Positions 48,558-51,633 of a stretch of 51,633 bases of DNA are shown piece after piece. The DNA is taken from the NCBI GenBank assembly GCA_902490095.1, contig CABUCQ010000001.1, positions 1 through 51,633 on the forward strand, written 5' to 3'. The first letter of the stretch is position 1, and each line of letters starts with the position of its first letter. The notes below the pieces were generated by a model. That model ran no database searches and had not been told where the DNA came from. It worked only from the letters and a program-made list of their open reading frames with translations. Origin of the DNA: an uncultured Collinsella sp. Its GTDB lineage: Bacteria > Actinomycetota > Coriobacteriia > Coriobacteriales > Coriobacteriaceae. The position numbers were made by a program, and so were the translations under genes.

Positions 48558-50522
48558 ATGGCAGAGAACCAGAACGCCGCCGATCAGGCATCGACGCTCA
48601 ACGACGAGCGCGCCACCCGCCTGGCCAAGCGCGCCGCCCTGTTCGAGGCGGGCCAGAACCCCTATCCCGAGCACTCTGAGCTTGAGGACTACGTCGCCGA
48701 TATCGAGACTAAGTACGCCGAGCTTGCCGATGGCGAGGACACCGAGGACGTCGTGAAGATCGCCGGCCGCGTGGTCGCCAAGCGCGGCCAGGGCAAGATA
48801 ATGTTCATCGTCGTGCGCGATGCGACTGCCGAGATTCAGCTGTTCTGCCGCATCAACGACATGGACGAGGCTGCCTGGAATACGCTCAAGGCCCTCGACC
48901 TGGGCGACATCCTGGGCGTGACCGGCGTGGTCGTGCGCACCCAGCGCGGCCAGCTTTCCGTTGCCCCTAAGAGCGCGACCCTGCTTTCCAAGGCCGTTCG
49001 TCCACTGCCCGAGAAGTTCCACGGTCTTTCCGACAAGGAGACCCGCTATCGCCAGCGCTATGTCGACCTGATCGCCAACGACGACGTTCGCGAGACCTTC
49101 CGTAAGCGTTCGCAGATTCTCTCTACCTTCCGTCGCTTTATGGAGTCCGACGGTTACATGGAGGTCGAGACCCCCATCCTGCAGACCATCCAGGGCGGCG
49201 CTACCGCCAAGCCGTTCATTACCCACTTCAACGCGCTCGATCAGGAGTGCTACCTGCGTATTGCCACCGAGCTCCATCTCAAGCGCTGCATCGTCGGTGG
49301 TTTTGAGCGCGTGTTCGAGATCGGCCGCATCTTCCGTAACGAGGGCATGGACCTTACCCACAACCCCGAGTTCACCACGATGGAGGCCTACCGTGCCTTC
49401 TCAGACCTCGAGGGCATGAAGGCGCTCGCCCAGGGTGTCATTAAGGCGGCTAACAAGGCCATCGGCAACCCCGAGGTCATCGAGTACCAGGGCCAGACCA
49501 TCGACCTTTCTGGTGAGTGGGCCAGCCGTCCCATGACCGACATCGTCTCCGACGTGCTCGGCAAGCAGGTCACCATCGACACGCCGGTCGAGGAGCTTGC
49601 TGCCGCCGCGCGCGAGAAGGGCCTGGAGATCAAGCCCGAGTGGACTGCTGGCAAGATCATCGCCGAGATTTACGATGAGCTGGGCGAGGACACCATCGTC
49701 AACCCGACGTTCGTGTGCGATTACCCCATCGAGGTCAGCCCGCTTGCCAAGCGTTTTGAGGACGACCCGCGCCTGACGCACCGCTTTGAGCTGGTTATTG
49801 CCGGTCACGAGTACGCCAACGCGTTCTCCGAGCTCAACGACCCGGTCGACCAGGCCGAGCGCTTTGCCGCCCAGATGGCCGAGAAGGCCGGCGGTGACGA
49901 CGAGGCCATGGAGTATGACGAGGATTACGTGCGCGCCCTCGAGTACGGTATGCCTCCCGCGGGCGGCATCGGCATCGGTATCGACCGCGTGGTCATGCTG
50001 CTCACCAACCAGGCTTCTATCCGCGACGTGCTGCTGTTCCCGCACATGAAGCCCGAGAAGGGTTTCCAGTCCGGTGCCGCTGCCGCCAAGGCTGCCGAGG
50101 CCGGCAACGCCGCGAGCCCGTTCGTTAAGTCGCTTAAGCCCACGCTCGATTACTCCAAGATCGCCGTTGAGCCGCTGTTTGAGGAGTTCGTCGACTTTGA
50201 TACCTTCTCCAAGAGCGACTTCCGCGCTGTGAAGGTCAAGGCATGCGAGGCCGTCAAGAAGTCCAAGAAGCTGCTGAACTTTACGCTCGACGACGGCACC
50301 GGCACCGACCGCACCATCCTCTCCGGTATTCACGAGTACTACGAGCCCGAGGACCTGGTCGGTAAGACCCTGCTCGCCATCACCAATCTGCCTCCGCGCA
50401 AGATGATGGGCATCCCCAGCTGCGGCATGCTGATCAGCGCTGTCCACGAGGAGGAGGGCGAGGAGCGCCTCAACCTGATCCAGCTCGATGCTTCCATCCC
50501 CGCCGGCGCAAAGATGTGCTAA
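48558..50522 (+). CDS. lysS: Lysine-tRNA ligase (class II) with extra C-terminal tRNA-binding OB domain
   Basis: YRQRYVDL, YLRIATELHLKR, FRNEG and YGMPPAGGIGIGIDR motifs. C-terminal DFDTFSKSDFR...RTILSGI...NLPPRKMMG..SCGML resembles the MetRS C-terminal/Trbp111 domain. Confidence 0.97.
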   Translation: MAENQNAADQASTLNDERATRLAKRAALFEAGQNPYPEHSELEDYVADIETKYAELADGEDTEDVVKIAGRVVAKRGQGKIMFIVVRDATAEIQLFCRINDMDEAAWNTLKALDLGDILGVTGVVVRTQRGQLSVAPKSATLLSKAVRPLPEKFHGLSDKETRYRQRYVDLIANDDVRETFRKRSQILSTFRRFMESDGYMEVETPILQTIQGGATAKPFITHFNALDQECYLRIATELHLKRCIVGGFERVFEIGRIFRNEGMDLTHNPEFTTMEAYRAFSDLEGMKALAQGVIKAANKAIGNPEVIEYQGQTIDLSGEWASRPMTDIVSDVLGKQVTIDTPVEELAAAAREKGLEIKPEWTAGKIIAEIYDELGEDTIVNPTFVCDYPIEVSPLAKRFEDDPRLTHRFELVIAGHEYANAFSELNDPVDQAERFAAQMAEKAGGDDEAMEYDEDYVRALEYGMPPAGGIGIGIDRVVMLLTNQASIRDVLLFPHMKPEKGFQSGAAAAKAAEAGNAASPFVKSLKPTLDYSKIAVEPLFEEFVDFDTFSKSDFRAVKVKACEAVKKSKKLLNFTLDDGTGTDRTILSGIHEYYEPEDLVGKTLLAITNLPPRKMMGIPSCGMLISAVHEEEGEERLNLIQLDASIPAGAKMC

Positions 50523-50525
50523 CTA

Positions 50526-50552
50526 GTTACGCGGTTCTACGAACCGCGTAAC
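50526..50552. terminator. Hairpin after lysS
   Basis: GTTACGCGGTTC-TAC-GAACCGCGTAAC perfect stem; no strong U-tract. Confidence 0.5.
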
Positions 50553-50565
50553 GGCTCGACGCTGC

Positions 50566-50664
50566 GCGGGCCGCATTTGGACAACCTGACGTTCAACTTC
50601 AAGGGCGCGACCAGAAGGTCAGCGCCCTTTCGTTTCACGTCACCTTGTCACAAATGCGGCCCGC
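50566..50664. repeat. Nested palindromic element adjoining the IS110 end
   Basis: GCGGGCCGCATTTG (50566-50579) pairs with CAAATGCGGCCCGC (50651-50664), with further internal stems. Confidence 0.7.
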
Positions 50665-50739
50665 TCGCTCATATGACCCAATCCGCTGTCAAGAGCCACA
50701 ATGGCCCCGCCGACCGCTTGCAATCGGTCGGCGGGGCCT

Positions 50740-50935
50740 GCCGTTGAACCCGTCCCGGTCCGCCCCCGGCATGTCGTCGACGCCTTCGGCTCAGTCTCAT
50801 ATCCGCGGATACCGCTCCGGCGGCCCGCAATCCTCTCCTTCGGCGGGGCTCCCCAAGTCTGACTTCGCGCATGCGGCCGCTGCCGCGCGCACAGCGAGAA
50901 CGGGGGTGTCCCCGAAGGCTGCCCGGCTCGCCGGG
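50740..50935 (-). ncRNA. Putative bridge RNA / seekRNA in the IS110 3' non-coding region
   Basis: Structured region downstream of the transposase containing ATATGAG (identical to the element end) and CTCGCT (matching the insertion flank). Boundaries approximate. Confidence 0.6.
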
Positions 50936-50948
50936 ACGGGGGCTATGT

Positions 50949-51578
50949 CTATTCGCCGGCCTCCCGGCACATCGCGCCGAGGGCCCACAGCCACCTCACG
51001 AGCTCGGCGGCGGTGGCGGCGTTCGCCTTCGCCTGGGGCATGCCCCTGGCGAGCATCTCCTCGCGGCGCCGGAGCAGGCGCTCGGAACCCTTCCTCCCGT
51101 GCATCCTCACCTCGAGCGGGACGCCGCTGCCCTTGGGCATCAGCTTCGGCTGGTGGCCGGCCTGGGCGTAGCTCCAGGACCCCTCGACAGCCAGCCTCCT
51201 GACGAGCGCGTTGCCGGCCCCGCTGATCCCGCCGAGGCGCACGGAGTCCGCGCTCGACCTCTGCTTCGGGGCGAGGCCGAAGTAGGACGTCACCTGCCTG
51301 CCGGAGCGGAACCTCGAGAAGTCGCCGACCTCGGACGCGAAGGCGGCGGCGAGCGCGAACCCGCACCCCTTGATCGACTGGAGCGCCTCGACCTCCGCCG
51401 AGAGGGGGCCCGCCGCGACGGCGGCCCTGTACTCGGCGAGGAGGTCGTCGCGCGTCTCGGCGGCCGCCTCGACCTCGTTCCTCAGCGCCGCAAGCGCCCG
51501 GATGCCGCCGTCGTCGGCGGGGTGTATGCCGTCGAGCCACCTGAGGAAGCCGTACGTCCAGTACCTCCGGGGGTTGGC
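50949..51578 (-). pseudogene. IS110-family transposase/recombinase, C-terminal part, interrupted at its 5' side
   Basis: LQSIKGCG..LA..F.SEVGDFSRF.SGRQVTSYFGLAP.QRSS....RLGGIS.AGN..VRRL.VE. The N-terminal DEDD domain is absent and the sequence changes character at 51579. Confidence 0.85.
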
Positions 51579-51633
51579 TGTTAGCGTCAATCTATTTTTC
51601 ACCAGTTTCGCTAAACAGGCGCGCCGTTCGCGC
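51579..51633. mobile_element. Probable terminal inverted repeat of an IS21-family element (runs off the window)
   Basis: TGTTAGCGTCAATCTATTTTTCACCAGTTT begins exactly where IS110 coding character stops; TG-start and layout resemble IS21 ends. Confidence 0.5.

Follow-up and report, generated by a model that had tools for sequence, protein, structure and literature searches.

The 281-nt non-coding region on the 3' side of the transposase gene of a Collinsella IS110-family element (minus strand, 50668-50948) has the IS1111 layout, and most likely encodes a seekRNA, or bridge RNA, of about 200 nt that chooses where the element inserts. The window, the whole stretch of 51,633 nt that was analysed, is an entire contig (C1) of a 204-contig assembly. 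The ends of the element, an empty target site, the co-variation of guides with targets and with the element end, and a loop-hairpin-loop architecture were all observed. The mechanism is the seekRNA or bridge-RNA one, as far as it is described in the published accounts (PMC11187229; PMC11208160), and is not surprising to a specialist. What is new is a well-documented Collinsella element of that mechanism that targets a repeat of its host.

According to this model, the DEDD recombinase of the element would use the RNA to choose the insertion site. In the first internal loop, TTCTCGCT would pair with the top strand of the core and the right flank, and AAGTCAG(AC) with the bottom strand of the left flank and the core. 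Together, these two target guides would specify ...AAGTC-AG-CGAG..., the edge of a REP-like long-hairpin unit. In the second loop, ATATGAG(AC) would read the junction of the excised circle as a donor guide. From the published biochemistry of the family, we infer that the region acts as an RNA, co-transcribed with the transposase and bound by it. The features are listed below in window coordinates.

50525-50667, no strand: target, one long-hairpin (REP-like) repeat unit directly after the lysS stop (BLAST copies; compensatory changes)
50668-50669, minus: core dinucleotide AG (CT on the plus strand), single in empty sites and flanking the element on either side after insertion
50672-50685, minus: right subterminal inverted repeat CGGATTGGGTCATA, with the left-end partner TATGACCCAATCCG
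50687-50692, minus: TTGACA, a -35-like hexamer 17 nt before the core (sequence)
50703-50738, minus: strong 14-bp hairpin (14+8+14) after the RNA domain, without a U-tract (self-match, RNAalifold)
50741-50943, minus: predicted seekRNA or bridge-RNA domain of about 200 nt, with a closing stem at 50943-50920 and about 50771-50741
50794-50802, minus: candidate donor guide ATATGAG then AC, ATATGAGAC, equal to the right end, the core and the first two bases of the left end
50804-50829, minus: hairpin of the second (donor) loop (RNAalifold columns 124-132/139-149)
50857-50865, minus: 3' target guide (B-guide) AAGTCAG then AC, equal to the left flank, the core and the first two bases of the element (AAGTC-AG-AC)
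50867-50892, minus: hairpin between the two target guides (RNAalifold columns 62-70/75-85)
50893-50900, minus: 5' target guide (T-guide) TTCTCGCT, with CTCGCT complementary to the top strand of the core and right flank (AG-CGAG)
50949-51578, minus: C-terminal fragment of the IS110-family transposase, stop included, corresponding to residues 162-373 of a 373-aa protein
51579-51633, minus: one end of a different multi-copy element, probably IS21 family (55-mer common to contigs C19 and C123; contig end)

Family and layout of the element

Full copies of the Collinsella element carry both PF01548 and PF02371, the pair of domains by which the IS110 family is recognised. In L022, a relative with a full-length open reading frame, these domains scored 41.9 and 73 bits, and the NCBIfam model NF033542 ('IS110 family RNA-guided transposase') scored 199.5 bits against its cut-off of 140 bits. 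The non-coding DNA amounts to 281 nt 3' of the transposase versus 128 nt between the left end and the GTG start, as is typical of the IS1111 group. The 14-bp subterminal inverted repeats, TATGACCCAATCCG and CGGATTGGGTCATA, lie 4 nt and 2 nt inside the ends and fall within the 7-17 bp of that group, and insertion is site- and orientation-specific with a shared core dinucleotide. These domains, the NF033542 score, the subterminal repeats and the downstream non-coding region bear out the initial annotation, which had placed the element in the IS110 family with an IS1111-type layout.

The order of the guides agrees with this assignment at the sequence level. The T-guide (50900-50893) lies 5' of the B-guide (50865-50857), the same order was seen in the related families examined, and the top-strand target match is described as 5' of the bottom-strand match in IS1111 seekRNAs (PMC11187229). 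On the other hand, the position of the IS1111 motif GL-P----S(t)G reads GLAPKQRSSA, with Ser-Ala aligned to the Ser-Gly of ISCro4, and the transposase of full copies has 364-373 aa versus the 330-350 aa reported for IS1111 transposases (PMC11187229). Judged by its sequence, the element is thus of the IS1111 type, except for the Ser-Ala at the Ser-Gly position and a slightly longer protein.

Ends, core and empty site

Copies with different flanks, when aligned, gave the layout flank-AG|ACAC-TATGACCCAATCCG...transposase...non-coding...CGGATTGGGTCATA-TG|AG-flank. All left junctions read ...AG-ACAC, and the right junctions listed read CATATG-AG-CGA, with L111 (AG-TGA) as the sole exception. On the opposite strand the core is CT, which is known from the IS110 family. 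Since the AG at 50669-50668 is common to the element and its target, the element proper ends with ...CATATG at 50670. The end had first been placed at 50668; this boundary was correct, with the refinement that its last two bases belong to the core shared with the target.

The left end of this copy was found on contig C19 of the same assembly, where the flank reads ...GGTTGAGCATAAGTC-AG / ...GGCGCCGCAGGTTGAGCATAAGTC-AG, that is, AAGTC-AG. A far flank resembling CT-GACTT had been predicted from the candidate guides, and the flank on C19 is what that prediction called for. Of the 13 positions of the complete predicted target, TTCTCG-CT-GACTT, 11 agree with the real one, CGCTCG-CT-GACTT. The unique DNA to the left of the C19 end shares a contig with the 3' end of lysS in relatives, at a distance of about 130-350 nt; by this synteny, a single lysS-proximal insertion has C19 on one side and the window on the other.

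Orthologous regions of relatives provided the empty site. In two of the five regions fetched (L194 and L196), the sequence reads ...CATAAGTC-AG-CGAGCGGG... with a single AG, and the same repeat unit is unoccupied, ...GGTTGAGCATAAGTC-AG-CGAGCGGGTCGCATTTG...; the other three differ in repeat content there. The empty sites in these two relatives therefore fix the ends of the element exactly.

As a separate observation, families with the ends AGACGATATGAG...CTCATATT (loci L129-L168) always show AG as the left dinucleotide, while the right one varies among AG, AA and AC. This variation implies that donor and target cores need not be identical, or that the crossover points are offset.

Proposed target guides and their co-variation with the flanks

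Every coordinate and string on which the initial annotation had relied was present on the minus strand. The plus strand at 50662-50669 reads CGCTCGCT, and only 6 contiguous bases of the window's own T-guide match its flank. To relate guides and flanks, the guide region was parsed in 87 of 102 loci from Collinsella genomes. The 73 complete non-coding regions comprised 44 unique ones, with a mean identity of 97%, and their variable bases cluster in the first guide, in the loop of the hairpin between the guides, in the second guide and in one further pair of blocks.

Before the combinations were counted, entries identical in guide and 14-nt flank were reduced to one. On the right side, the variable T-guide base and the fourth base of the right flank occurred as C/G in 14 combinations, U/A in 16, U/G in 5 and C/A in 3 (n=38; Fisher p=8e-4). 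Thirty of the 38 unique combinations thus show the base changing with the right flank, and five more are U-G, which would be compatible as wobble pairs between RNA and DNA. On the left side, 22 sites with GAC-type B-guides carry A and 2 carry T, while GTC-type guides face A in 5 and T in 16 (Fisher p=3.4e-6, n=45). Both p values overstate independence, since the copies are related to one another. The 2x2 table omits three of the 48 combinations (GTC/AAT, GCC/GCC and AAC/GAC), among which GCC/GCC is a third matching state. Over all 48, the B-guide triplet equals the flank triplet in 36 and does not match it in 12. Watson-Crick disagreement at the variable positions amounts to 8 of 38 combinations on the right side and 7 of the 45 tested on the left. 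Counted as short motifs, the two B-guide site types each occur 55 times in this genome, and site availability therefore does not explain the association. Thus TTCTCGCT (50900-50893) and AAGTCAG (50865-50859), which had been proposed as target guides, do covary with their flanks at the significance given above.

The pattern of variation also bears on whether the region could code for a small protein, either through a 67-aa open reading frame (50669-50872, minus strand) or through overlapping long frames. Open frames are indeed present, as is expected at such G+C richness. However, single-base indels that break the frame occur among near-identical copies (alignment columns 7, 104, 186 and 207), and the variation is clustered at the guide positions rather than patterned by codons. 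We give this explanation next to no credence.

To gauge how often such matches arise by chance, we shuffled the 254 nt that precede TTGACA 200,000 times while preserving their composition. CTCGCT was contained in 4.6% of the shuffles, AAGTCAG in 0.6% and ATATGAG in 0.2%; CTCGCT and AAGTCAG in the observed order and spacing appeared in 0.0015%, and all three motifs together in none. The 6-of-8 match of the first guide, taken alone, is at the chance level, with about 1.2 expected per region by our estimate. The caution that the short matches could individually be accidental was therefore justified for the 6-of-8 match, but it does not extend to the set of three motifs.

Co-variation across families

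We searched 301 genomes of the class with the protein; matches came from 72 of them, in 18 of 114 genera. We fetched 40 relative loci, with transposases 29-43% identical, and an exact-seed search recovered subterminal inverted repeats in 34 of 41 loci, of which three misdetections were dropped. Of the 20 distinct non-coding regions that were left, 17 entered a permutation test, the selection being made after the regions had been viewed: L161 and L162 duplicate the family of L159, and in L168 an insertion shifts the guides beyond the scanned interval. The score was the length of the longest matches between bases 30-140 of a non-coding region and its own junctions, as compared to the junctions of the others. 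The mean was 13.0 for own junctions versus 9.84 across families, and the observed total was not attained in any of 20,000 permutations.

The layout is constant among these families: a guide complementary to the top strand is followed by a hairpin and then by a guide equal to the left flank, the core and the first bases of the element. Guide pairs in relatives include GTCATCCT / CTCAGAC, CCGTCCC / GACAAAGAC and TTGCCCT / CGTAGAA. The alignment of homologous regions, which had been suggested as a check, thus yielded the association both in the 87 parsed loci and in the 17 families. On the level of sequence, this guide-flank co-variation within and across families supports a programmable system.

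We weighed these data against the view that the short matches reflect chance or the shared ancestry of element and flank, the region being only a structured end with a transcription stop and transposase-binding sites. The matches are individually short, RNA from the region was not observed, and related copies inflate the statistics, all of which would suit such a view, as would the chance-level match of the first guide. It is contradicted by the left flank, which had been deduced from the RNA in advance; by the variation in a 97% conserved region, which falls mainly in the guides and tracks the flanks; and by the permutations and shuffles, none of which reproduced the observation. The view was already disfavoured, and we consider it very improbable.

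The donor motif

The internal ATATGAG (50802-50796) is identical to the terminal ATATGAG (50674-50668), as the initial annotation had stated. Together with the following AC, it matches 9 contiguous bases of the deduced circle junction, and it is invariant in 44 of 44 unique copies. Because it equals the deduced junction of the excised circle, we interpret ATATGAG(AC) as a probable donor guide. The homologous motif of relatives is preceded by a conserved ...CCGCGG hairpin, whose motif (A/G)TGCGG...CCGCGG recurs in the related families, and it changes with the right end: ATATGAG accompanies CATATG-AG, ATATTAA or ATATTAG accompanies CATATT-A(A/G), ATTTAAG accompanies CATATA-AG, and ATATCAG accompanies CATATC-A. 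At one position G, T, A and C all occur, each time matching the right end, and the donor guide proposed at the outset thus follows that end through four bases.

Even if the target guides are real, ATATGAG(AC) might be a conserved structural or protein-binding element, the donor ends being read by the protein via the subterminal repeats; its likeness to the end would then stem from common descent from a palindromic ATAT-rich end sequence. In keeping with this, a search by eye across the families gave no convincing 5' donor guide complementary to the left end; ACGAAATG in the RNAs of some relatives resembles their left end ACGATATG and was not interpretable. In addition, a short seekRNA with the target loop alone is described as sufficient for ISEc11 movement (PMC11187229), and long subterminal repeats are the defining trait of the IS1111 group and could serve protein recognition. 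The four states in which the motif tracks the right end and the 9 contiguous junction bases matched in the window nevertheless argue against it, and we judge it unlikely.

We therefore retain the donor-guide reading for the 3' side of the loop. At the sequence level, a 3'-side guide is recognisable in the donor loop; a full two-strand loop of the IS621 type could not be recognised, since no left-end partner guide was found across the families and two haplotypes of the loop (5' strand and hairpin loop) occur in copies or sub-lineages with identical ends. These linked haplotypes, GAGAGGATTG...CCGGAG and GAATGGAGTG...ACAGAA, occupy 50835-50826 and 50820-50815 (alignment columns 118-123 and 133-138). 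In the 44-copy alignment, the two co-varying blocks showed no consistent pairing with each other and no partner that explains their linkage.

Each of the two 3'-side guides, AAGTC-AG-AC and ATATG-AG-AC, extends past the core to include the element's first two bases. This raises the tentative possibility, which we hold to be less probable than not, that the RNA reads its DNA partners asymmetrically in this branch of the IS1111 group, with the left end read by the protein via the subterminal repeat and without an RNA guide. A single RNA could then recognise three junctions: that between element and flank on the left (for excision), that of the circle (as the donor) and the left one newly formed by insertion. 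Such asymmetry, if true, would be a mechanistic difference from the symmetric four-guide bridge RNA of IS621, and the 87 natural copies would map mismatch tolerance at single guide positions.

Predicted fold, promoter and transcripts

The RNAalifold consensus of the 44 unique copies has a closing stem and two outer stems around an internal loop that holds both target guides, with an inner hairpin between them; further on come a second hairpin, the donor motif and then the hairpin at 50738-50703. The inter-guide hairpin contains one compensatory pair, CG in 39 copies and AU in 5. With copies this alike, co-variation lends only thin support to the fold, at 2 of 83 pairs. The single-sequence fold has z=-3.2. 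When nine diverged families were folded separately, the inner hairpin and its enclosing outer stem appeared in eight of them; in these minimum-free-energy folds, the two guides pair in part with one another. An Rfam scan of 50000-51633 matched no family and gave only three noise matches to microRNA models (E 0.4-0.75).

The region ends with ...TTGACA-GCGGATTGGGTC-ATATGAG at 50668, and TTGAC stands just 5' of the right inverted repeat in 31 of 31 correctly bounded loci of relatives. The deduced circle junction, TTGACA-N18-GACACT, is the sole promoter candidate and has a weak -10. A scan of 50560-51100 for consensus promoters and terminators gave none. The hairpin at 50703-50738 had been suggested to end the RNA; a strong hairpin is indeed present there and may do so, but it received no terminator call and lacks a U-tract. 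The scan result fits the published proposal of co-transcription with the transposase from a junction promoter (PMC11187229). Contigs from two transcriptomic and two metagenomic runs, the RNA status of the latter being guessed, cover parts of the region, among them 50740-50864 (X4, 100% identical, depth 30) and 50800-51575 (X2). These contigs give neither strand nor ends and may derive from carried-over DNA, and we did not count them as evidence of transcription.

Comparison with known systems

Durrant et al. (2024, PMC11208160) predict that 93% of IS1111 elements have a bridge RNA in their right end. As far as they are described by Siddiquee et al. (2024, PMC11187229), the IS1111-family seekRNA elements ISEc11, ISPa11 and ISKpn4 share with the present element the DEDD transposase, the PF02371 C-terminal domain, the subterminal repeats and the long downstream non-coding region, as well as two short target matches in the same order that overlap at the insertion point. 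Natural retargeting between relatives is also common to them, seen here at single-base resolution among repeat variants. On the same description, the present element differs in its Actinomycetota host, its Collinsella long-hairpin repeat target, its 364-373 aa and its Ser-Ala where the family motif has Ser/Thr-Gly, and its RNA is predicted from sequence.

Compared with the published description of the IS621 bridge RNA, the two internal loops, the target on both strands around a CT core and the donor circle junction are alike, whereas the RNA here is placed downstream of the transposase instead of upstream, its guides come in reverse order and only one donor-side guide is recognised. The protein is only weakly similar to those of IS621 and ISCro4 (E=0.005 and 1e-5), in the C-terminal domain only. 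ISPpu9 of Pseudomonas putida, an IS110-family element in repetitive extragenic palindromic sequences with the Ssr9 small RNA gene downstream (PMC12288879), is likewise an element in repeats with an RNA region 3' of the transposase; its host and repeats are unrelated to those here, a comparison made with a brief description of that system.

RNA-guided recombinases are under development as tools for genome insertion, and the present guide variants, which track variants of the host repeat, offer raw material on their specificity and mismatch tolerance. Moreover, the guides were read from the raw sequence alone and then confirmed by the predicted far flank and the empty site.

The transposase of this copy and the interrupting element

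The minus-strand transposase frame runs off the contig end and terminates at the TAG at 50951-50949. In the window piece, which is 95% identical to residues 162-373 of a full-length relative, Pfam finds only PF02371; the DEDD/RuvC half is absent. Contig C19 carries the left end and residues 1-111. An IS21-like end abuts residue 111 on C19, in inverted orientation, and residue 162 in the window, which leaves about 174 nt of the transposase unaccounted for (residues 112-161 absent). Interrupted by the IS21-like element and without these residues, the copy is defective and unable to move by itself; its guide module is intact.

The last 55 bases of the contig (51579-51633) equal the end of C19 (C19:23801-23855) and the start of C123 (C123:1-55). 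Since the three contigs share these bases and then diverge, 51579-51633 is the end of another multi-copy element. In the relative locus L177 this end adjoins an IstB gene (PF01695, 236.7 bits), and the interrupting element therefore probably belongs to the IS21 family. The L181 copy of the interrupting element carries istB as well, and no second end was recognisable within 3.2 kb. The same end abuts a second IS110-family gene on C123, and related ends interrupt this transposase elsewhere, in another genome (locus L020) and in the metagenome run X1 (a loose end at window position 51274). Repeated insertion of one element into another, or rearrangement, could lie behind these IS21-like ends.

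Distribution in Collinsella and the target repeat

The element is abundant in Collinsella, a common gut genus. In a nucleotide search, 34 of 61 related genomes had matches; among the 36 other Collinsella genomes the number was 32. Some of these matches are to the flanking repeat only. Scanning public genomes with the protein as guide, we confirmed 474 relatives, of which the 80 best are at least 93% identical and, going by their record titles, come from Collinsella, uncultured Coriobacteriaceae or uncultured bacteria. Searching the literature for Collinsella together with IS110, judged by titles and the starts of abstracts, gave no paper on the element, which may nevertheless already be catalogued in ISfinder or in supplementary tables of the published work.

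The element matches listed for 11 contigs all stop at contig ends, indicating that Collinsella assemblies break at these elements, which explains the assembly breaks. We had considered 'solo' right-end fragments as miniature elements and rejected them, since all 11 that were fetched proved to be contig ends. One locus (L028, G007:C82) combines an open full-length transposase frame with a 128-nt deletion in the non-coding region that takes out the second target guide and the whole donor loop, which makes it a natural 'guide-less' copy. The genome of the window (G000) also holds pieces of at least two other IS1111-type families, as well as two additional left ends from a sub-type of the present Collinsella element; these other pieces and left ends, most of them at contig ends, lie at C86:9-380, C123:100-870, C26:185-439, the starts of C164 and C204, C148:4347 and C151:3967.

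BLAST found copies of the target repeat on 17 other contigs of the assembly. When aligned, they show compensatory changes in the stems, and the loop GACCTTCTGGTC and the flanks AGCGAGCGGG / CGCGCAGCGTCG are conserved. The REP-like repeats measure about 145-200 nt and are placed after gene ends, for example at C58:2997-3140, C33:10788-10933 and C15:25557-25720, and a second perfect hairpin, GTTACGCGGTT...AACCGCGTAAC, lies 3' of the repeat. The lysyl-tRNA synthetase frame before the insertion (48558-50522, plus strand) encodes 654 aa, about 150 aa above the usual length, with a C-terminal extension. Loci L129-L132 belong to a related family whose target is another Collinsella repeat, ...GTGCCGGCAC-A(A/G)-AAGGAACGTCCCC.
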